The translations under genes and the position numbers were made by a program. From an uncultured bacterium (GTDB lineage Bacteria > Schekmanbacteria > GWA2-38-11 > J061), in assembly GCA_964549305.1 (NCBI GenBank), contig CAZJVM010000034.1:1-27666 (forward strand): 27,666 bases of DNA. The letters are read 5' to 3'. How positions within the stretch are numbered: position 1 is the stretch's first letter; each line of letters begins with the position of its first letter. Shown here one piece after another: positions 6,535-22,950 of the stretch. The notes under the pieces are model-generated. The model saw only the letters and a list, made by a program, of their open reading frames with translations. It was not told the origin of the DNA and made no database searches.

Positions 6535-8775
6535 ATGGATAAACTCAAAAACTTTTCACAAAACGAACTTCTCTTTGGCCACGACAGGGAAGAATCAATC
6601 GTCGCCGTTGAACTGGCGGGCGATTCTGTCGTAGAGATATTTAAAAGAGAAGATGGAAAACTTACATCGAGACAGGAAAATTTCGATCCCTTCATACTGC
6701 TTGAGAATGAAGATTACCTTGTTGAGTTAAATGAAAAATATGAAGTCAGAGAACTTGAAGGCGGCAACTTCTTCAGGTATTTAGTTTCCTTCCCCTCGTG
6801 GAGCGCCTGTCTGAGGGCTAAGGATTATCTCAGAAAACTGTCTCGTAAAACAATGTCGCCCCTCCTGTCTCCCTATATGTTTATCAATGACCCTGTGCAT
6901 CAATATCTTCTGTTGAGCGGCAAGACTCTTTTTAAGGGTATGTCAATGGGAGATATCCACAGGATTCAGCTCGACATAGAAACATATTGCGAAAAAGGGT
7001 TTGAGTTTTCAAATGCGGCAAGAAAAGGGGACAGAATCATATCCATAGGATTATCGGATAACAGAGGGTGGAGTTATGTGATTGACGGTTCAAAAAAAGA
7101 GGAACCGGAAATGCTTGAAGAACTCAATGACCTCATTGCTGAAAAAGATCCCGATGTTATCGAGGGGCATAATATATTTAGATTTGATTTTGAATACATA
7201 AAGACACGCGCCGGAATGCACAAGATTAAGCTGAAATGGGGCAGGGGAGGAAAAGCTGTAAAATCCCATTCTTCGAGGGTCGCCTTTGCCGAGCGGGCAA
7301 TTTCCTATCCAAAGTGGGATATTTACGGAAGGCACGTAGTGGATACATGGTTCTTGGCGCAGGCATACGATATATCGGCGCGCGAGCTCGATGAATACGG
7401 CTTGAAAAGCGTGGCGAAGCAGATGGGAGTGGCTTCATCGGACAGGACTTATATCGAAGGGAAAAGAATTGCCGAAATATTCGATACGAATCCCGAACAA
7501 CTTATGAAATACAACCTTGATGATGTCTTCGAAACAAGGGCGCTTGCCGGGATATTCGGAGAGGGTTATTTCATAGAAGCGCAGATATTTCCCTATTCCT
7601 ATCAGAATGTAATTATACGGGGAAACGCCGCAAAGATTAACTCTCTTTTTCTCCGTGAATATATTTACCGTTCTCACTCCATACCTCAAATACCCGGTGA
7701 GCGAAGCAATATCGAAGGGGGATACACGGATGTTTTTATTACAGGAATTGTGAAAAGAGTGCTTCACTGTGATGTGCGGTCGCTTTATCCATCTCTTATG
7801 CTGAATTATAACATTGGTCCGTCAAGCGATTCACTGCTGATTTTTCACTCCCTTTTAAAAGATTTGAAGGATTTCAGAATAAGAGCAAAGGAGATGGCGC
7901 TTTCGGAGAAGGATGATATAAAAAACAAATACTACGACGCTCTTCAGAGGGAATTCAAGATTCTTATCAATTCCTTTTACGGCTATCTCGCGGCAGGTTT
8001 TTCGAATTTTGCGGACTATGAAAAAGCGGGAGAGGTTACCGCGCGCGGACGGGATATCATAAAGAAAATGATAAAATGGTTAGAGGAGAGAAAATGCCGT
8101 CCAGTTGAAATCGATACCGATGGAATATATTTCATCCCTGCTGAAAATATAAAAGGCGCGGAAGATGAGGAGAAACTAATCAGTGAACTTTCGCAGTTTC
8201 TTCCCAAAGGAATCGAAGTGGAATTTGACGGAAAATACAGGGCAATGTTCAGCTACAAGATGAAAAATTACGCTCTGCTCGACTATAAGGGGAAATTGTC
8301 AATAAAAGGGTCGGGATTGAAATCAAGAGGACTCGAAAAATTTCAAAGGCAGTTTCTCAGAGAGATGATAAATCTGATGCTTACGGGAGAATTCGGTGAG
8401 GTGGAAAAACTTTACAGGGAATATATAAAAAAAATCAGGGGGCACGCCTTTGATGTCGAACTGCTCTCCAAGACAGAAACCCTTTCTGATTCCCTTGATT
8501 CATACAGACAGAAGGTTGTACTAAAAAAAAGAAATCAGTCCGCGCCCTATGAACTTGCCATAAAATCCGGAAGAAACTATCAGGCAGGCGACCAGATATC
8601 CTACTATGTCACGGGAAGTAAAAAAAGAGTAACTGTTTACGATAACTCAAAACTTACATATGAGTGGGACAGGAATGACCCTGACGAGAATGTGGAATAT
8701 TACTGCCGGAAACTTTCAGACCTGTATAAAAAATTCACGCCTTTCATAGAAACTTCGCAGGATTCACTCTTTTAG
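6535..8775 (+). CDS. polB: Family B DNA polymerase (Pol II-like) with 3'-5' exonuclease
   Basis: ExoI DIETY, ExoII GHNIFRFD, ExoIII YNLDDV. Polymerase motifs DVRSLYPS, KILINSFYG, EIDTDG, KNYA. The C-terminal QDSLF is a clamp-binding-type motif. Confidence 0.93.
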   Translation: MDKLKNFSQNELLFGHDREESIVAVELAGDSVVEIFKREDGKLTSRQENFDPFILLENEDYLVELNEKYEVRELEGGNFFRYLVSFPSWSACLRAKDYLRKLSRKTMSPLLSPYMFINDPVHQYLLLSGKTLFKGMSMGDIHRIQLDIETYCEKGFEFSNAARKGDRIISIGLSDNRGWSYVIDGSKKEEPEMLEELNDLIAEKDPDVIEGHNIFRFDFEYIKTRAGMHKIKLKWGRGGKAVKSHSSRVAFAERAISYPKWDIYGRHVVDTWFLAQAYDISARELDEYGLKSVAKQMGVASSDRTYIEGKRIAEIFDTNPEQLMKYNLDDVFETRALAGIFGEGYFIEAQIFPYSYQNVIIRGNAAKINSLFLREYIYRSHSIPQIPGERSNIEGGYTDVFITGIVKRVLHCDVRSLYPSLMLNYNIGPSSDSLLIFHSLLKDLKDFRIRAKEMALSEKDDIKNKYYDALQREFKILINSFYGYLAAGFSNFADYEKAGEVTARGRDIIKKMIKWLEERKCRPVEIDTDGIYFIPAENIKGAEDEEKLISELSQFLPKGIEVEFDGKYRAMFSYKMKNYALLDYKGKLSIKGSGLKSRGLEKFQRQFLREMINLMLTGEFGEVEKLYREYIKKIRGHAFDVELLSKTETLSDSLDSYRQKVVLKKRNQSAPYELAIKSGRNYQAGDQISYYVTGSKKRVTVYDNSKLTYEWDRNDPDENVEYYCRKLSDLYKKFTPFIETSQDSLF

Positions 8776-8928: not shown

Positions 8929-9120
8929 TTAAGCTGAAATTAACTCTATTATTACAGCAATCGTTAAGGCAATACCGCAAATTGCGGAAAAAGCATATAA
9001 GCCGCTTTTTACCGCCTCTTTTGTCCCCACAGAGTTTGCGTCATAGGAAATGATTCCCCATAAAGTGGATATACAGGATACGAGAAATATGAATGATATT
9101 ACAAATCCTGAAGTATTCAT
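8929..9120 (-). CDS. Small two-TM membrane protein
   Basis: 63 aa with two hydrophobic helices. ATGA overlap with the stop of the upstream gene (9117-9120) suggests translational coupling. Confidence 0.7.
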   Translation of the reverse strand: MNTSGFVISFIFLVSCISTLWGIISYDANSVGTKEAVKSGLYAFSAICGIALTIAVIIELISA

Positions 9121-9521
9121 TGTTTTTTATTTATACAGATGTCGTAATTGTCAAATATAGTGAGAATATTCAATATTCCGGCAACAAGCAGATATGTACC
9201 TCCTATCTCATCGAATGCGAGGACACCCTTCAACCCCTTTACTGTGAAGTTGCATATCCAGAATATGATGCCGTCAAACAACTGAATCGTAACTGCCGAA
9301 AGCTGAATTATGTCAAAAAGTCCGGGATTGCTCAATTCGCCTTCAGGAAGAAAAAACGACCCTAAAATGTAAAATCCCGCAATTGACAGGGAAGTGACTA
9401 CGAGAAATGTAATCAATGCCCTTATTTTTTTACCGAGTATGAAATATCCCGCACCGGGTAAAATAATTCCGGCGATACAGACATATGCCTTTGAGGGGGT
9501 CGGGTTATTGTTTTCTGCCAT
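9117..9521 (-). CDS. Membrane protein (DUF6677-like)
   Basis: ILPGAGYFILGKKIRA...EIGGTYLLVAGILNILTIFD.YD pattern; ~4 hydrophobic segments. Confidence 0.75.
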   Translation of the reverse strand: MAENNNPTPSKAYVCIAGIILPGAGYFILGKKIRALITFLVVTSLSIAGFYILGSFFLPEGELSNPGLFDIIQLSAVTIQLFDGIIFWICNFTVKGLKGVLAFDEIGGTYLLVAGILNILTIFDNYDICINKKQ

Positions 9522-9664: not shown

Positions 9665-10405
9665 TTACATCATTGCCTTCATAAACTTGCCGAAGTTTTC
9701 TTCGCCGTAGACATCCTTTATGACTTTTCCCATCCTGTCCGTGTCACGCATTCCGGCAAACTGTGCCATAATCCGAGCCTGTTGTTTCTTTCTCAATTCA
9801 TCGCCGCCGTTTTCAGATTCTCTGAACATTCTAATCCAAAGCTTTATATACTCTCCGGCAAGACTTTTTACAGTTCCGGATTTTTCAACGGTTGTTTCGG
9901 CAATCATAAATATGGGCGATGTGTGTGTGCGTACCCAGGTCGTCCTTTCGTGAACGGGGATTACCTTAAGCCCTTTTTCCGTTGAATAGGTTTTGAAAAC
10001 ATCACTGAAGGCGTCGATGTATTTCATAGTGAAGTCGTAGTCCGTAACAAGGTCAAATCCGAAGGAAAAATCCGTGTCAAAGTAATATGTGCCATCCTTT
10101 GCAATGATTGTGTTTATTCCCCACGAAGGTATCTTGTAAGCGTAGTCCGGTTTTACTACGAAAAGTTCGGCATCGGTTACAATCTGATTGTTTCTGTGAG
10201 GCACGGGAATTCCTTCACCGAATTTAAAATGTACCATTGATACATTGTCTATTCCTTCTCCCTTGTATTTTCTTATAGTTCCCCCGTCTTTGCCGTCGGG
10301 GAGACGGAGTTGCTCAAGGTCTTCAAGACCGGTAATCCTTTCAAGGGGTATTTCCTTTGAAAGCGCATCGAAGCAATATTCGGGCAATGATTGTTTTTCC
10401 ATCAT
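9665..10405 (-). CDS. Red chlorophyll catabolite reductase / ferredoxin-dependent bilin reductase (FDBR)-like protein
   Basis: 246 aa from ATG 10405 (RBS AAGGAG). The ORF-track extension to 10630 overlaps the upstream gene. Pattern P.Y.IP.WG...D....FDLVTDYDFTMKY...WVRTHTSP...EYIKLW...D.MGKVIKDVYGEE follows the RCCR/FDBR layout. Recognised by eye. Confidence 0.6.
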   Translation of the reverse strand: MMEKQSLPEYCFDALSKEIPLERITGLEDLEQLRLPDGKDGGTIRKYKGEGIDNVSMVHFKFGEGIPVPHRNNQIVTDAELFVVKPDYAYKIPSWGINTIIAKDGTYYFDTDFSFGFDLVTDYDFTMKYIDAFSDVFKTYSTEKGLKVIPVHERTTWVRTHTSPIFMIAETTVEKSGTVKSLAGEYIKLWIRMFRESENGGDELRKKQQARIMAQFAGMRDTDRMGKVIKDVYGEENFGKFMKAMM

Positions 10406-10500
10406 TCTTTCTCCTTTTAAATGAAATCGTGTTCGGCGTTGTTTTTCAGAATACATATCTGATTTTATAAATATTTCCAAGCCAAAGGTTATAACGCGAA

Positions 10501-11352
10501 TTAGAGTGCAACTTTTCTGTGAAGGGCGATTTCGATAAAAAGGGCGCAAAAAGCCACGGCAAGCAGTGCGGGAGTGTGGATATAGAGTCGGTTGTAAAAG
10601 AGTTCGATAATGAAAAATAAGTGAAGGCACAGGCGTATGAAAAAGATTACAGGATGAATATCCGAATTTATTAATTCCTTCCTTCGTCGTGAATCTATAA
10701 GTGGAATAAGGATAAAAGTGAAGACTATGGCAATGAATGTGAGAAGTTTCGTGTTTTCATCGAGGTTGAAATAATTATTGAAGCTTCCAATTAACAGGAT
10801 TCCGGTGAAAAGTCCCGCGTAGGATAAAAAAGGCACAACCGAAATGAGCGCGAGGAACTTCCTGTTTTTCATCCAGAGTTTTCTAATAATCCTGCAAAAG
10901 AGTGAAAAGAAAAAAACTACAAACATCCACGCATAAAGGTTTCCCGCAGGCACACCAAACCATCCTTCCGAAAGGGGTATTTTCCAGTGCCAGTATCCGA
11001 GTCGAATAGCTACGGCATCAACGGATAGGTCAATCAGCACGGCAAGCAGGGCATCGGCGAAGGGTCTGATAAATTCCGAAAGGTGGTAGGCATCGGTAAC
11101 CTGCATACCGCTGTAAATGATTATTGACCAGGCGAGGGCGATTACAATGGGCACATTACCTATAACAAGCGTGTAACCTTCTCCATAGTGATAGGTTTTG
11201 AAAAAAAGCATATCGAGCTCTTCGAACAAAAGCGCGTAAAGAAAGGCGGTGGCAACCTCAGCGCGGTGACAGGGCGTACGCCTCGTGGAATGCCACAGGG
11301 TAATTATAAAAACCCCCAGCACGCAGACTTCAAAGAAAATGAAAGATTTCAT
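10501..11352 (-). CDS. CruF-like (DUF422, carotenoid biosynthesis family) membrane protein
   Basis: E...YHY...IGNVPIVIALAW...IDLSVDAVAIRLGYWHW...WFGVPAGNLYAW signature; multi-TM. Confidence 0.75.
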   Translation of the reverse strand: MKSFIFFEVCVLGVFIITLWHSTRRTPCHRAEVATAFLYALLFEELDMLFFKTYHYGEGYTLVIGNVPIVIALAWSIIIYSGMQVTDAYHLSEFIRPFADALLAVLIDLSVDAVAIRLGYWHWKIPLSEGWFGVPAGNLYAWMFVVFFFSLFCRIIRKLWMKNRKFLALISVVPFLSYAGLFTGILLIGSFNNYFNLDENTKLLTFIAIVFTFILIPLIDSRRRKELINSDIHPVIFFIRLCLHLFFIIELFYNRLYIHTPALLAVAFCALFIEIALHRKVAL

Positions 11353-11538
11353 AAATAACCTTTGATATTTTTAAACTATATTTGCCCTGTTATATTTGTT
11401 TCCGGTGCCATTATTTGGAATGAATAAGCCCGTCAGCGCTATTCAATAACAGGCGCCGGCATTTTCACTGTTGATGTTACATTATTTTTCTGGTTAAAAA
11501 CCATTTAAAACTCATTATCTATATAAAGGGGCAATACT

Positions 11539-12309
11539 ATGGATATGGAAGAAAAATTCGGAAAAATGAGGAGCGTAACTCAGGAAATGGCTTCTGCCAT
11601 TGACGGAGGCAGGGAATGGGAAGAAAAGAAATGGAATGTGGAGGAGGGAAGTTTCAATATTTCCATAATAAGGGGTGAGTCCGTGCAGAAGGCATCGATA
11701 GGACGAATCAGACTTAGTGTGGACAAAAAAATCACAGGACCCGGAAATGAAGTCGTGAATCCTATGAAACTAAACAGTTGCCAGTTGAATGTCTATCCTT
11801 CAAATCCTCTGCTTCCCGTGGCATACCTCAACCTTGAAAATCGCGTAATCGAAGATGAATCAGATACACTTGGCGGTTATTTGAGCATATTTCCCATGAA
11901 GGATGAGGGAGAAATAATCAATCCCCTGCGTGATATCGTTGACTCGAAAATTTCCCAATACGGCAAGGACAAGAATGAAGTTATGAGGGCTTATGATGCC
12001 ATGTGGCAGGATTTGGATTGGGAATTCAAGGGTGAAAAAGGAATAGGAATGAAAATCAAGGCAGACAAAGACGACGCGGAATTTGTTTTTGATATGCTCC
12101 TCTCGCTACTCGAAGGCTTTTTTGACTGTCTGTCGAAATTCAATGACAGACATTTCAATGCTGAAGATGAGGAAAGGATGTATCTGTTCCGTTACAGGAT
12201 AACGGAGTTTATTATTCTTAAAGATGCAAGCAGTAAGTTTGTCTTTGGCAAGGGTCTTCCCCTCGAGACTATTTCATCTATGATTCTGCCACCTGTGGTA
12301 AAACTTTAG
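11539..12309 (+). CDS. Divergent coproporphyrinogen III oxidase (HemF)-fold protein
   Basis: IIRGESVQKA, YPSNPLLPVAYLNLE (cf. HP.NP..PT.H.N.R), LGGYLSIFP (cf. FGGG.DLTP), KGIG (cf. RGIGG), FRYRITEFIILKDASSKF...LETISSMILPPVVKL (cf. RRGRYVEFNL..DRGT.F...ESILMSLPP...W). RBS AAGGGG. Confidence 0.65.
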   Translation: MDMEEKFGKMRSVTQEMASAIDGGREWEEKKWNVEEGSFNISIIRGESVQKASIGRIRLSVDKKITGPGNEVVNPMKLNSCQLNVYPSNPLLPVAYLNLENRVIEDESDTLGGYLSIFPMKDEGEIINPLRDIVDSKISQYGKDKNEVMRAYDAMWQDLDWEFKGEKGIGMKIKADKDDAEFVFDMLLSLLEGFFDCLSKFNDRHFNAEDEERMYLFRYRITEFIILKDASSKFVFGKGLPLETISSMILPPVVKL

Positions 12310-12337
12310 GTGCGGATTTTAAGAGCAGGTGCGGTTT

Positions 12338-14278
12338 TCAACCGCCTCTTTTTGCGGTGAGAAAGTTTTCAAGGGTCCTTATCTTCTCTTCAAGTGACGC
12401 GTCTTTAGTGTCGAGGTTTCTCGCTTTCTTGTAAACCCTCAAAGAGTTCGCGTATTTTCCGGATTTGTAATAAGCATCGGCTAACTGCTTCAGGAAATCC
12501 GCCTTATTGGTGAAACGGTCGCTTGCGTAATCGAGGTCATTTTCGGAATCTTCAAGCTCTCCTTTTTTTATAAATACTGATGCCCGCACGATATAAGCCT
12601 TGTTTTCCGCTGTTTTATCCAATTCTATCGCTTTGTTCAGATAAAAAAGAGATTTATCGTAACTGCCCTCAATGGCGTAAAGGTTTCCAATGTTTATGTA
12701 CGGAGAAATGTATTCCGGATTCAACTTTATCGATTCTTCAAACTCCTTCAATGCTTCCCGGGATTTACCTTTGATTGCGAAGACTACGCCGAGATTGTTT
12801 CGAAGGTATCCGTCAGCAGAATTTAATTCGAGCGCTTTCAGGTAATAAGTCAAAGCATTGTCAATATCGTTCTTATCAAAATAAATATTCCCAATATTCA
12901 CATAGGCGTAACTCATTTTTGGATTTAGAGCTATTGCGGAATTGAACAGCTTTATGGCGTTTTCCAAATCTCTCTTTGCCTTATATGCAAGACCCAAATT
13001 AAATCTTGCGCGCGCGAATTTCGGATTCATTTCTACCTGGTTGGAGAAAAGCGTCAATTCATTCTTCCAGATTTTATTCCTTGCAAAGGAAATTGATGAA
13101 TAGGAAATCACCGTGATTGATAAAAGCATGGCGGTAATCACCTGAAGGGCAATTTTCTTCCTGTTTTGAAAATTCCTCAGCATGCCGGAAATGAATATTC
13201 CCCCAATCAGCGCGATTCCCACAGAAGGCAGATAAAGAAAATGCTCGCTCTTTACATTGGGCGAGAAGGGAATGATGTTCGATATGGGAATAAATACCGC
13301 CGCGCTCCAGCAAAAGGCGAAAAGTAAAAGTTTTTTGAACCTGCCTAAGAGAGAATAAAGGACAATCAGAAACAATGCGGTAAGAATGAGAAATAAAAGA
13401 GTCCACGCCGAAATTCCATAAGACTTTCCCGGAGGATAGAGTGTGTTAAGGTTAAAGGGGAAAAGCAGTAACTGTATATAGTCGCTAAGGACTCCAAACA
13501 TTGGCGAAATTCTCCGCGCCACTGAATCAGCAGATGATGAGGGAATGAAATTTACTCCCATCGCTTCAATCCTCAAAAAAAAGTAAAGGACAACAGCGGG
13601 AATGAACGCAAAATAGGCGAAGAGTTTCTTTTTTAAAAACTCAGCGACTGCGCCCTCATTATAAATGATTTCGTAAAGTATCAGCGCGAGAGGAAGGGTT
13701 ACTGCCATTTCCTTTGAAAGCAGTGAGGCAAAAAAGCAGAGAGATGACAAAGAGAGAAAAAGATGTGAGGGAAATCCCTTTCTGCCCCGTGATTCCATAA
13801 AAAGGTAGAAGGCGATAATGTAGAAAAGCGCGCATAAAATATCTGTCCTTCCGGAAATCCACGCCACTGATTGAGTATGAATCGGATGCGAAGCGAAGAT
13901 GAGAGCGCTTATGAAAGATACTTCGATGTTTCCGTCTATCTTTAAAATCAGAAGGAAGACTGCCAGAGTCACAAGGCAGTGCAGAAGTATATTGGTTAAA
14001 TGGAAACCTCTCCCGTCAACTCCCCATATACTGTAATCCGCCACATATGAAATCATTATCGCCGGACGGTAAAAGAGTATATCCTTGCCGAACTGCGAAG
14101 GATGCCCGTAAGGTGACAGCAGAAGTTTAGGAATATTGCCTATGCTTCTTATATCAGGATTGTCCCGGGCAATATCCACGTCATCCCAAACAAAGTCGTG
14201 GTTGAGCGTGTTGCAATAGGTGATCAGGGAAACTGCTATGAGAATCGCAATGATATATTTTTTTTCAATGACAGGCAC
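12338..14278 (-). CDS. TMTC-like GT-C glycosyltransferase with C-terminal TPR repeats
   Basis: FVWDD, FYRP, FHLTNILLH, FASHPIHTQSVAWISGRTD, LLSKE, EHFLYLPSVG, RNKIWKNE, then ~6-7 TPRs. The start is uncertain: GTG 14278 is preferred because the ORF-track start at 14392 leaves only 26 bp to the divergent gene. Confidence 0.88.
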   Translation of the reverse strand: MPVIEKKYIIAILIAVSLITYCNTLNHDFVWDDVDIARDNPDIRSIGNIPKLLLSPYGHPSQFGKDILFYRPAIMISYVADYSIWGVDGRGFHLTNILLHCLVTLAVFLLILKIDGNIEVSFISALIFASHPIHTQSVAWISGRTDILCALFYIIAFYLFMESRGRKGFPSHLFLSLSSLCFFASLLSKEMAVTLPLALILYEIIYNEGAVAEFLKKKLFAYFAFIPAVVLYFFLRIEAMGVNFIPSSSADSVARRISPMFGVLSDYIQLLLFPFNLNTLYPPGKSYGISAWTLLFLILTALFLIVLYSLLGRFKKLLLFAFCWSAAVFIPISNIIPFSPNVKSEHFLYLPSVGIALIGGIFISGMLRNFQNRKKIALQVITAMLLSITVISYSSISFARNKIWKNELTLFSNQVEMNPKFARARFNLGLAYKAKRDLENAIKLFNSAIALNPKMSYAYVNIGNIYFDKNDIDNALTYYLKALELNSADGYLRNNLGVVFAIKGKSREALKEFEESIKLNPEYISPYINIGNLYAIEGSYDKSLFYLNKAIELDKTAENKAYIVRASVFIKKGELEDSENDLDYASDRFTNKADFLKQLADAYYKSGKYANSLRVYKKARNLDTKDASLEEKIRTLENFLTAKRGG

Positions 14279-20229: not shown

Positions 20230-20943
20230 ATGAAAAAAAACGAGCTTAGCAGTCTTCTTAAAAAAGATTTAAAACTGGAGAAGGAAGTTATCGCCCTGAG
20301 AGTTTTTGACGGTGAGCTTCCCGAAAATATAATGGTGCCGCAATACGAGGGCGTAACGATGATGGGATTATGTTCGCTTATAGGCGAAATACAGTCAGAC
20401 CGGCGCGCTTTTTATATTACAAAAGGCAATGTTCGCTGTCCCGAAGCCCTCATATCTACCGGTTCCTGCGAAAAGCTTACCGACGAAGAACATATTAAAA
20501 CGATTGAGGAAATAATCGAAAACTTTCCCTATCACAAGGATGTAAAAACCGCGAAGAAATATTATGATGGTTTGGACGAATCCCTGACTTTTCCCGAAAA
20601 GAAATTCGACTCAATGATAGTGGGCACTCTTGAAGATGTGGAAGACCCTGATCTCGTACTGCTTTTCCTGAAGCCTAAATACGCGGACATTCTCAACAGG
20701 GTGCATGCCTATTTGGGTGAATTTATACGGGGGTTCGGCGGTACGGGCGGATGTATATTTCTTGTGCGTTATCCCTTTGTTACGGGGAAACCCACATTTT
20801 CCACAAGCGACCTTGCCTGGAGAACATTTACCGGAATGAACGAAAATGAGCTTACATTTGTGTATCCCTATAAAAAGCTTAAGGAAGTGGCGGGGGAGAT
20901 TCACGAAGTAGCGGAATACTGCAACGCATTCGGCAGTTGGTAA
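20230..20943 (+). CDS. DUF169 family protein
   Basis: LKLEKEVIAL, LCSLIG, RCP....G, GTLE....PDLVLLF..P, GGC....YP..TGKP..S..D...R..TGM.ENEL...YP. Confidence 0.75.
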   Translation: MKKNELSSLLKKDLKLEKEVIALRVFDGELPENIMVPQYEGVTMMGLCSLIGEIQSDRRAFYITKGNVRCPEALISTGSCEKLTDEEHIKTIEEIIENFPYHKDVKTAKKYYDGLDESLTFPEKKFDSMIVGTLEDVEDPDLVLLFLKPKYADILNRVHAYLGEFIRGFGGTGGCIFLVRYPFVTGKPTFSTSDLAWRTFTGMNENELTFVYPYKKLKEVAGEIHEVAEYCNAFGSW

Positions 20944-20988: not shown

Positions 20989-22950
20989 ATGGCAACTGAA
21001 TATGGATGGAGAGGAAAAATATTAAATGTGGACCTTTCATCGGGGAAAGCAGGCGCGGAAAAGACTCCCGATTATGCGGACAGTTATATAGGAGGCAGAG
21101 CGCTTGCATCGAGAATTTACTGGGATGAGGTCAGCGCGAATACGGGCGCTCTTGATGCCGATAACCTTTTGATGATTTTGCCCGGACCGCTTACGGGAAC
21201 TCACGCCACTGCGTCGTCAAGATGGGTTATGACCGCGAAATCTCCCCATTCATATCCTGATCAATACGGTTTCGGAAATTCCGGAGGTTTTTTGGGCGCG
21301 GCGATTAAGCTTGCGGGATATGACGGTATAAAGGTTAGAGGCAAGGCGGATAAACCTTCATATGTATTCGTTGAAAACGGGAAAGTTGAAATTAAGGATG
21401 CAGGCGGATTGTGGGGGACAACTTCCGATGAAGCCCTCAAAAAGCTTCGCGAAGCGCACGGCAACAAAGCGAGAATTGTGACGATAGGTCCTGCAGGTGA
21501 AAACCTCGTGCGTTTTGCAATTGCCGTATCCGACCAGGGCGGTACCATATCAAACGGCATAGGTGCTGTGATGGGGTCGAAGAATCTCAAGGCGATTGTC
21601 GTAATGGGAGACAAGGGCGTGCCGGTTGCCGATGGTGAAAGACTGAAAGCCCTTAATCAGAGAATAAGGTTTTTGAGGAAAGGGCTTAACGAGAGCGTTT
21701 ATATGTCGGAACCGACAGTTGTAATCACCGACATTGAGAAGGGACAGAATACTCCCTGTTTCGGTTGTCCTGCCGGGTGCATGCGGGCGAAATTCAAGCA
21801 TAAATCGGGACTCGAAGAAGTCAGAAAGACCTGCGCCGCGGCATTTTTCTATTCTCCCTGGGATACTGCGAAACACGGTGAATCAACAGACGCGCCTTTC
21901 TTCGCCACCTCCCTCTGCGACCGTTACGGGCTATGCACAGGTGAAATGTCAAACATTATGAACTGGCTAAATAACTGCCACAAGCGCGGAATTATAAGCG
22001 AAGAAGAGATGGGCGTGCCCATCTCGGACATTGGAAGCGTTGATTTTATAGAAAAGCTCGTACATTCCATTTCATACAAGAAAGGATTCGGCGCGCTCAT
22101 GGCAGAAGGCACAAGAAGGGCGTCAATAGAAAAGGGGAAAGATGCCGAAGAGGTCGCGCTCGAGCGCATCATGCCTTCCGGTTATGTGAATGATTCATAC
22201 GGCGGAAGGGTATTTCTCATAACTTCGCTCTTTTATGCCACAGAGCCGAGGAATCCCATAATTCAGCTGCACGAAGTAAATTACGTGCTTCTGAAATGGG
22301 TGCTTTCATACACCACAAACGGGATGATGTCGCCCATCGATATCAAGACTCTCAAAAAAATATCAAAGAGAGTATGGGGAAGCGAGGAGGCAGCTGACCT
22401 GTCAACCTATGACGGCAAAGCGGAAGCTGCATACAGGATTCAAAACCGCCAGCACGCGAAGGAAACAATGGTCTCCTGCGACAGGTATTTTCCGATCTTT
22501 GAAACTGACCAGGAAGAGGGATATATGGGAGATCCCACATTTGTGCCTCAGCTTTTTTCGGCTGTGACGGGAGTCGAGATGTCAGAGGAAGAATATTACA
22601 AGGTTGGCGAAAGGTCTGTAAACCTGCAGCGCATAATTCAGGGCAGAGAGGGCAGAGCGGGGAGAAAAGACGACAAAATCCCCGAGTTTAATTTTACCCA
22701 ACCCGTAGAAACGTCTGAAGGCGTGCTTGGAATGTTCGATCCCGACCTCGAGTTTCCGGGTCCCGGCGAGGAGATAGTCAGCAGAAAAGGAAAAACTCTT
22801 GACCGCGACGGATTTGAAAGAATGTTGAGTGAATTCTATGAATTTCGCGGATGGGATGTGGAAACCGGACTGCAGAAGAAGGAAACTCTCGAAAAACTCG
22901 GCCTTGGCGACATCAGTGATGAAGCCGGTAAGCTTGGTTTGATTAAATAA
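20989..22950 (+). CDS. Aldehyde:ferredoxin oxidoreductase-family W/Mo-bis-pterin enzyme
   Basis: YGWRGKILNVDLS, YIGGR, GPLTGT, KSP, GYDGI, IGPAGENLVRFA, GAVMGSKNLKA, CFGCPAGC, DRYGLC, FYEFRGWD.ETG. RBS AAGGGAG. Confidence 0.93.
   Translation: MATEYGWRGKILNVDLSSGKAGAEKTPDYADSYIGGRALASRIYWDEVSANTGALDADNLLMILPGPLTGTHATASSRWVMTAKSPHSYPDQYGFGNSGGFLGAAIKLAGYDGIKVRGKADKPSYVFVENGKVEIKDAGGLWGTTSDEALKKLREAHGNKARIVTIGPAGENLVRFAIAVSDQGGTISNGIGAVMGSKNLKAIVVMGDKGVPVADGERLKALNQRIRFLRKGLNESVYMSEPTVVITDIEKGQNTPCFGCPAGCMRAKFKHKSGLEEVRKTCAAAFFYSPWDTAKHGESTDAPFFATSLCDRYGLCTGEMSNIMNWLNNCHKRGIISEEEMGVPISDIGSVDFIEKLVHSISYKKGFGALMAEGTRRASIEKGKDAEEVALERIMPSGYVNDSYGGRVFLITSLFYATEPRNPIIQLHEVNYVLLKWVLSYTTNGMMSPIDIKTLKKISKRVWGSEEAADLSTYDGKAEAAYRIQNRQHAKETMVSCDRYFPIFETDQEEGYMGDPTFVPQLFSAVTGVEMSEEEYYKVGERSVNLQRIIQGREGRAGRKDDKIPEFNFTQPVETSEGVLGMFDPDLEFPGPGEEIVSRKGKTLDRDGFERMLSEFYEFRGWDVETGLQKKETLEKLGLGDISDEAGKLGLIK

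Follow-up and report, generated by a model that had tools for sequence, protein, structure and literature searches.

FDBR-fold and HemF-fold proteins encoded close together in an uncultured Schekmanbacteria genome are divergent members of two related paralog families, and probably neighbours rather than a pathway

Introduction

The ferredoxin-dependent bilin reductases (FDBRs), the red chlorophyll catabolite reductases (RCCRs) and the HemF-type coproporphyrinogen oxidases (CPOs; CPOX in humans) are related in fold, according to passages of two papers (PMC10151467, PMC13446030). The passages of the first of these (Rockwell, Martin and Lagarias, PNAS 2023) present all known enzymes of the fold, FDBR, RCCR and CPOX, as ultimately oxygen-dependent and the fold as having diversified after oxygenic photosynthesis. 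They also place a group of Schekmanbacteria sequences between FDBRs and RCCRs, within the RCCR outgroup of the tree, describing these sequences as uncharacterised and their hosts as not being oxygenic phototrophs, and they report pre-PcyA clusters in which an FDBR gene is accompanied by genes for a heme oxygenase, an Fe-S protein, two V4R proteins and a BBAG globin. Here we analysed a 27,666-nucleotide contig of an uncultured Schekmanbacteria bacterium (CAZJVM010000034.1; the whole contig is referred to as the window), on which three adjacent genes encode an FDBR/RCCR-fold protein (F1; 9665-10405, minus strand), a CruF-like integral membrane protein (10501-11352, minus strand) and a HemF-fold protein (H1; 11539-12309, plus strand). 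The original prediction, made by a model from the letters of the window, had placed the three genes correctly, with the CruF-like and RCCR-like genes on the minus strand and the HemF-like gene divergent, and had proposed that they form a pigment/tetrapyrrole module. Our analysis indicates that these are real genes and probably neighbours, not a pathway, F1 and H1 being divergent members of two related paralog families.

The family of F1 is already known, yet uncharacterised, from the passages of Rockwell et al. 2023 (PMC10151467); what we add are the total counts of FDBR-like (F) and HemF-like (H) genes and a companion HemF-like family that lacks the CPO residues. The copy number per genome, the HemF-like paralogs and the gene neighbourhoods reported here appear in none of the passages of that paper. 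In a literature search that covered few subscription journals, it was the only paper found on Schekmanbacteria and bilin reductase, and the search returned no copy-number expansion of FDBR-like genes, no HemF-like family described in anaerobes or without CPO residues, and no account of the ferredoxin, aldehyde:ferredoxin oxidoreductase (AFOR) or DUF169 contexts of such genes. Like the pre-PcyA clusters, the genes described here are FDBR-family genes of non-photosynthetic bacteria that often lie beside Fe-S proteins; unlike them, the window cluster has none of the pre-PcyA partners, those of F1 being a PF04240 membrane protein and a HemF-like protein.

Results

F1 has an FDBR/RCCR fold and keeps both aspartates

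F1 lies in an open reading frame (ORF) at 9665-10630, within which the ATG at 10405, behind AAAGGAG, is almost certainly the true start; the product has 246 aa, and homologs of 245-246 aa cover 99-100% of this form. Against Pfam PF05996 (Fe_bilin_red) F1 scored 20 bits (E 6e-4), under the 31-bit cut-off. Searched directly, F1 found a paralog in its own genome (C67:6027-6719) at E 1e-20, which itself scored 56.7 bits on PF05996. To judge from these matches the weak PF05996 score of F1 is not chance, its link to the family running through paralogs and profiles only. The AlphaFold2 (AF2) model of F1 (predicted local distance difference test (pLDDT) 92.5, predicted template modelling score (pTM) 0.90) retrieved RCCR, HY2, PcyA and PebB at the top of a Foldseek search (template modelling (TM) score 0.65-0.73), with 49 matches at E<=1e-3 among RCCR, HY2, PcyA, PebB, PebA and PebS. 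Together with the profile-to-PDB comparison below, these results bear out the FDBR/RCCR-fold call for this gene.

By fold the top matches were RCCRs (PDB 3aga, 2zxk; E 4.7e-9, TM 0.68-0.72). The alignment of the F family, searched against the PDB, matched PebB (6qwq) at E 4e-32, HY2 at 4e-22, PcyA at ~1e-15 and RCCR at 3e-10, so that RCCR is farther than PebB and HY2 by sequence profile; the likeness of F1 to RCCR was measured at the level of the fold, and the host of F1 is a non-phototroph. With the reductases PebB, HY2, PebA and PcyA (6qwq, 6kmd, 2x9o, 2d1e), F1 shares the same alpha/beta/alpha fold, profile matches from E 4e-32 to 1e-14 across its family, and a conserved aspartate in both the central sheet and the C-terminal helix. 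D112 of F1 is the sole invariant column of the family alignment (A2; 40/40 sequences) and aligns with the central-sheet Asp; D223, retained in >=90% of the same 40 sequences, aligns with the Asp of EKDP/ERDP in PebB, HY2 and PebA. We take these two residues to be the proton-donor aspartates of FDBRs. The second motif differs from that of FDBRs in that the Pro of 'DP' is an Arg in F1, which reads TDRMG and not (N/K)DPGx; among the own-genome copies in the alignment (n=16, with the F2 paralog on contig C42 omitted), 13 carry Asp at the second position, 2 carry Glu and 1 carries Thr. With both aspartates conserved, F1 looks catalytically competent in the manner of an FDBR.

The named homolog that F1 matched best comes from a Candidatus Schekmanbacteria metagenome-assembled genome (MAG; 70% identity). 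Only 2 of 75 homologs (P0001 and P0002) were nearer to F1 than to F2, which suggests that F1 split off, in its own lineage only, from a clade that is common in Thermodesulfobacteriota. We infer from fold and aspartate pair that F1 is probably a ferredoxin-dependent, cofactor-free reductase. It would take single electrons from a ferredoxin, and its bound, extended conjugated substrate would be protonated via D112 in the central sheet and D223 in the C-terminal helix, as in FDBRs. That substrate is probably bilin-like or another open or cyclic tetrapyrrole derivative. It would not be biliverdin from a canonical heme oxygenase, because PF01126 was not found in the genome, in a search that did not cover IsdG, HugZ, ChuS and ChuW specifically. 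The setting differs from that usual for FDBRs in this respect and in the lack of a phytochrome or phycobiliprotein gene in the window.

H1 keeps a HemF fold without the catalytic residues of a CPO

H1 (256 aa) matched PF01218 (Coprogen_oxidas) over residues 6-254 with 28.3 bits, under the cut-off of 31.8, and the NCBIfam HemF equivalog PRK05330 with 26.3 bits against a cut-off of 297; a precomputed annotation assigns PF01218 to H1 despite the sub-cut-off score. A direct search with H1 returned eight paralogs (E 1.5e-16 to 2.7e-7), and the weak PF01218 score of H1 is not chance. Its AF2 model (pLDDT 87.5, pTM 0.88) retrieved CPOs at the top of the Foldseek search (TM 0.70-0.76, E ~1e-10), and the H family alignment matched CPO 3e8j in the PDB at E 6e-30. 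The HemF-fold call therefore stands, with the same fold as HemF/CPO over the full length of the protein and with scaffold motifs G46..K51, R218, D229 and PP 251-252 kept. The two models also matched across families, that of H1 finding RCCR and FDBRs from rank 20 and that of F1 finding CPO from rank 43; this agrees with the relation between the FDBR/RCCR and HemF folds that the original prediction had invoked and that passages of PMC10151467 and PMC13446030 state.

The prediction had also called the gene degenerate, and the active site justifies the word. We placed the CPO motifs H-x-N-x-R and GGGxD (human CPOX His258/Asn260/Arg262 and Asp282) by alignment to Leishmania CPO. Passages of a deep mutational scan report that CPOX His258, Asn260 and Asp282 are intolerant of substitution and that Arg262 serves substrate recognition (bioRxiv 10.64898/2026.07.02.735896). 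At human CPOX H258/N260/R262/D282, H1 has Y96/N98/E100/S116, and all eight H1-clade sequences have [Y/F/L]-N-E-S there. None of the nine H paralogs of the genome has the full His/Asn/Arg/Asp set, the Asp being kept in 7 of the 8 besides H1. Because the catalytic His, Arg and Asp are replaced, H1 is, as far as residues can tell, not a coproporphyrinogen oxidase. We likewise rejected H1 as the HemF of this organism, given the absence of the catalytic residues and the existence of nine paralogs.

H1 would thus have retained the HemF fold and pocket scaffold while its pocket was remodelled, with loss of the His, Arg and Asp through which a CPO decarboxylates coproporphyrinogen oxidatively. It is more likely to bind a related ligand, or to convert one by non-HemF chemistry. 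HemF2 offers a precedent for a HemF paralog with an altered substrate, although it has remained a propionate decarboxylase that depends on O2. Sequences of the H1 clade are rare: a search of 1.84 billion cluster representatives gave 22 relatives at E<=1e-3, of which five reached <=1e-10 and one <=1e-30. A scan of distant relatives (P0204, 423 aa, and P0207) for fusions turned up PF01218 and a methyltransferase fragment only, and gave no functional lead.

Three other HemF-like paralogs (C8:36450-37322, C66:10267-11253 and C82:3835-4749) carry N-terminal hydrophobic extensions resembling a signal or anchor, and no paralog besides these three has a His where CPOX has His258. Cytoplasmic ferredoxin would be out of their reach if they are exported.

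F1 and H1 belong to two expanded families

The source genome (G000) spans 2.94 Mb in 169 contigs with a completeness estimate of 100%, the window being contig C34. An iterative hidden Markov model (HMM) search of six-frame ORFs of >=80 aa over the whole genome yielded 26 genes, F1 and H1 included, of which 17 are FDBR-like (229-254 aa) and 9 HemF-like. Most exceeded the Pfam cut-offs, namely 13/17 F genes (up to 143.8 bits) and 7/9 H genes (up to 137.8 bits); F1 and H1 rank among the most divergent copies of their families. As F1 is one of 17 paralogs and H1 one of nine, chance adjacency becomes far more likely.

We compared a genome of the same genus (G003), one of the same family (G004) and two of the same phylum (G001 and G002) and, beyond the phylum, five Thermodesulfobacteriota MAGs that were reached via F1 homologs and that each carry the nearest homolog type of F1. 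PF05996 matches numbered 13, 8, 3 and 3 in G003, G004, G001 and G002, and PF01218 matches 6, 7, 3 and 2. The Thermodesulfobacteriota MAGs had 7-14 PF05996 and 1-4 PF01218 matches per genome. Among 14 well-known control genomes, PF05996 occurred in one (Synechococcus) and PF01218 in three. These counts suggest that both families radiated in the Candidatus Schekmanbacteria-like lineage and that the F family also expanded in Thermodesulfobacteriota sediment MAGs.

The trio does not recur in the genomes compared

The original prediction had tied the module to co-occurrence of its three genes in other genomes, and the module did not survive this comparison. The trio was absent from all four other phylum genomes examined, from all five Thermodesulfobacteriota MAGs and from all 80 CruF-like metagenome loci. 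In G003 the F1 ortholog (70% identity) lies beside EF-P, TPR and beta-propeller genes, and we found neither an H1 ortholog (best 22% identity) nor, with the window query, a CruF-like gene. In G004 the CruF-like ortholog (62%) is flanked by genes for a ComF-like phosphoribosyltransferase and Era, the H1 ortholog (48%) lies beside RmuC, 25.6 kb away from it, and no F1/F2-type gene was found (best 26% identity). Of the three genes, G001 has only an H1-like fragment of 116 aa, and G002 has none of the orthologs. The other window genes showed no synteny with the ortholog loci in the phylum genomes. No CruF-like or H1 relative occurred at any of six F2-type loci, the five Thermodesulfobacteriota MAGs contained no H1 ortholog (best 27%) and no PF04240 gene, and no F or H HMM match was found in the 444,918 bases of the 80 CruF-like loci. 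Since the orthologs occur apart in G003 and G004, we do not claim that F1 binds H1 or the CruF-like protein.

The CruF-like protein has no carotenoid pathway around it

The CruF-like protein (283 aa) matched PF04240 (Caroten_synth) over residues 10-183 with 52.7 bits, over the cut-off of 25, and its family was thus rightly called; against the CruF equivalog TIGR03460 it reached 33.6 bits, the cut-off being 154.7. With CruF/bisanhydrobacterioruberin hydratase it has in common the PF04240 family, a multi-pass membrane character and invariant acidic and aromatic residues, 21 columns being invariant among 121 homologs (including E44, D100, D108, D112, W121 and W142). Unlike CruF, it falls far under the equivalog cut-off, its genome has no phytoene/squalene synthase (PF00494, sought in G000) and its homolog loci have no recurrent crt genes. 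The recurrent neighbours at the 80 CruF-like metagenome loci were MarR (14), PAP2 (10), YceI (9), a sigma-70 factor (8) and Rieske (5), with no crt family among the 12 most recurrent neighbour clusters. We rejected a role as the carotenoid hydratase of an endogenous pathway, the genome being without PF00494. The missing carotenoid pathway and the YceI and PAP2 neighbours of homologs point to a polyprenyl lipid other than a carotenoid as the probable substrate of the protein, which is encoded by a single-copy gene in this genome and probably works without a link to F1 and H1. Among the control genomes Methanosarcina acetivorans was positive for PF04240. Four of the 120 CruF-like homologs listed (P0110, P0115, P0117 and P0131; 432-448 aa) carry a precomputed HEPN domain (PF05168), an unusual combination in what is presumed to be an enzyme of carotenoids.

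F and H genes often lie beside ferredoxins and AFORs

We annotated 145 ORFs around the 24 other F/H copies of the genome. The neighbourhoods vary from copy to copy, with no single context. Small 4Fe-4S ferredoxins or Fer4 domains recur; AFOR genes of the tungsten type occur at four loci (three of them with an H gene alongside, one with an F gene) and DUF169 at three. Other neighbours encode DUF362-Fer4 proteins, FAD-dependent oxidoreductases, PNPOx-like proteins, MBL hydrolases, radical-SAM proteins, a UbiD, TonB-dependent receptors and MFS transporters.

Of the F/H clusters in this genome, the one that most resembles a pathway lies on a single strand at C8:35336-41561 and contains, in this order, genes for DUF169 (with a PCP_red C-terminal domain), a HemF-like protein, an MBL hydrolase, DUF362, an FDBR-like protein and two unknown paralogs 'a/b' (~226-236 aa); upstream of it lie genes for a TonB-dependent receptor and a 603-aa unknown protein. 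Related a/b genes accompany the F2 type in Thermodesulfobacteriota, where a conserved gene order leads up to the F2-type gene (loci L037, L039, L040 and L041): a PNPOx-like protein (181 aa), 'a' (~229 aa), 'b' (~220 aa) and the FDBR-like protein. The full order PNPOx-a-b-FDBR is found in three of six F2-type loci and a/b-FDBR in four of six. The a and b proteins are mutual paralogs whose homologs include the C8 pair and a protein of 250 aa encoded next to the HemF-like gene of C82; they matched no family of Pfam or NCBIfam, and the ESM Atlas gave a weak, sub-threshold resemblance to ATC_hydrolase/DUF6144. A check of the PNPOx-like genes heading the F2-type clusters for a heme-degrading HugZ type returned just 19-20-bit matches to the F420-dependent PPOX class, too weak for use.

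At C66:8279-12808, genes for a UbiD-family decarboxylase, a HemF-like protein and an AFOR stand in a row on one strand, adjoined by a di-heme cytochrome c peroxidase gene. This pairing of a decarboxylase with a relative of a propionate-decarboxylating enzyme may hint at the class of substrate.

Genome content and remaining features of the window

The genome encodes one ALAD and one HemN_C radical-SAM protein. With these present and PF00494 and PF01126 absent, the organism would make tetrapyrroles and have neither CrtB-route carotenoids nor a canonical source of biliverdin. A COX1-family protein (heme-copper oxidase or NO reductase; 335 bits) is encoded at C28:31244-32524 in a genome otherwise rich in anaerobe-type enzymes, and cytochrome bd was not found. 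The organism is therefore not strictly devoid of oxygen- or NO-reductase-type enzymes. The original prediction had described the neighbourhood as anaerobic-looking, which is fair for the window because it contains an AFOR gene, although the genome does encode the COX1-family protein. Its remark that heme oxygenase, phytochrome, hem and crt genes are missing agrees with our scan, in which none of these families was found among 22 window ORFs.

Between the divergent CruF-like and H1 genes lie 186 bp (11353-11538), in which a single promoter-like match on the minus strand (11509-11481) is no more than expected from shuffled sequence. A terminator-like hairpin with a T-run directly follows H1 (12331-12345, plus strand), as a pattern match only. 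A gene for a DUF6677 membrane protein (9117-9521, minus; 61.5 bits) follows F1 on its strand, 143 bp past the stop, and is overlapped by a hydrophobic 63-aa ORF (8929-9120, minus). Upstream of the cluster, a family-B DNA polymerase with an exonuclease domain is encoded at 6535-8775 (plus) in this bacterial genome. A DUF169 gene (20230-20943, plus) lies directly upstream of a gene for a tungsten-type AFOR (20989-22950, plus), the pair being 8 kb from H1.

Discussion

We consider the three genes most likely to be neighbours, not parts of a common pathway. Several observations weigh against this. The best matches of the trio, P0001 (F1-like, 74%), P0077 (H1-like, 71%) and P0084 (CruF-like, 68%), are all Logan singletons, each found on 2 contigs of which the longest has 32,749 bp; since they share both values, a single contig probably carries the whole trio in one close relative or more. 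Genomes G000 and G004, and probably that Logan assembly, contain an H1-clade as well as a CruF-like gene, and G003, G002 and G005-G009 contain neither, a pattern that is small and phylogenetically non-independent, yet compatible with a link. The CruF-like gene and F1 lie on the same strand, separated by a 95-bp spacer (10406-10500) in which no terminator-like site was predicted, and may be co-transcribed. Finally, an F gene lies <=3 kb from three of the nine H genes (C34, 1,134 bp; C9, 160 bp, in tandem; C8, 2,105 bp, in one same-strand cluster), against a mean of 0.35 under random placement, with a simulated P of 0.004 that is inflated because the window pair, counted among the three, was what gave rise to the test. 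A further F-H tandem occurs on contig C284 of G003, and on contig C17 of G004 an F and an H gene are 4.6 kb apart.

The proximity data would fit F-type and H-type proteins that act as functional pairs, either in a complex or one after the other on a single tetrapyrrole-like substrate, with F1 and H1 as one such pair and the CruF-like protein as a bystander. That the two folds are homologous and both bind tetrapyrroles (Foldseek; passages of PMC13446030) also favours pairing. We nonetheless regard this as unlikely: G003 has the F1 ortholog without H1 and G004 the H1 ortholog without an F1/F2-type gene, the H1 clade is missing from five genomes with F2-type genes, nearby partners are lacking for six of nine H genes and for the majority of F genes, and the statistic includes the pair that prompted it. 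It is plausible that the two families are functionally coupled to some degree, though not through F1 and H1 in particular, whose orthologs occur without each other. Distinctly less probable is the module as first proposed, in which F1, H1 and a CruF-like hydratase work together on a single lipophilic substrate, cyclic or polyene, and scavenge breakdown products of chlorophyll, heme or carotenoids. The adjacency of the genes, with the CruF-like gene and F1 closely spaced on one strand and H1 divergent, the probable 32.7-kb contig with all three, and the shared presence of H1-clade and CruF-like genes in G000 and G004 argue for it, and the TonB-dependent receptor with which the C8 cluster begins fits uptake of a large exogenous ligand. 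Set against these are the absence of the trio from every other phylum genome and F2-type genome compared and of F and H genes from the CruF-like loci, the separation of the G004 orthologs among housekeeping genes, and a genome without a carotenoid pathway or a canonical heme oxygenase.

F1, H1 or both could also be non-enzymatic, that is, ligand-binding, carrier or sensor proteins that reuse a tetrapyrrole-binding fold. Loss of the CPO His, Arg and Asp in H1 and the rarity of its clade would agree with this, as would the ability of Pre-3 FDBR variants to bind cyclic tetrapyrroles, reported in passages of PMC13446030; but F1 has both FDBR aspartates, (nearly) invariant over 40 relatives, and many paralogs lie directly beside ferredoxin genes, which fits redox catalysis, and we hold a non-enzymatic role to be very improbable. 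Our preferred reading thus remains that of three neighbouring genes, two of them divergent members of related paralog families.

The window cluster itself carries less weight than the families behind it, for which it supplies a convenient pair of divergent representatives. As a tentative proposal, and one that we put forward with some doubt, F1 and H1 may be the visible part of an extensive and so far undescribed radiation of proteins with the FDBR and HemF folds, among sediment bacteria that are non-phototrophic, mostly anaerobic and without a canonical heme oxygenase. Its members would be ferredoxin-driven, cofactor-free radical enzymes, often working as F-H pairs, that remodel or catabolise tetrapyrrole-derived or other conjugated substrates without oxygen. 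A genome with 26 F/H genes, many of them beside ferredoxins and AFORs and none of the nine H genes having the full CPO set, and with neither a canonical heme oxygenase nor a carotenoid pathway, is a misfit with the oxygen-dependent picture of the fold. If the proposal is true, the chemistry of the fold predates, or is independent of, the oxygen-linked roles (heme oxygenase with FDBR, PaO with RCCR, and O2-dependent HemF) that underlie current evolutionary scenarios. Identifying the substrate of any one such protein would open a new branch of tetrapyrrole or ferredoxin-linked metabolism and inform the origin of bilin biosynthesis.

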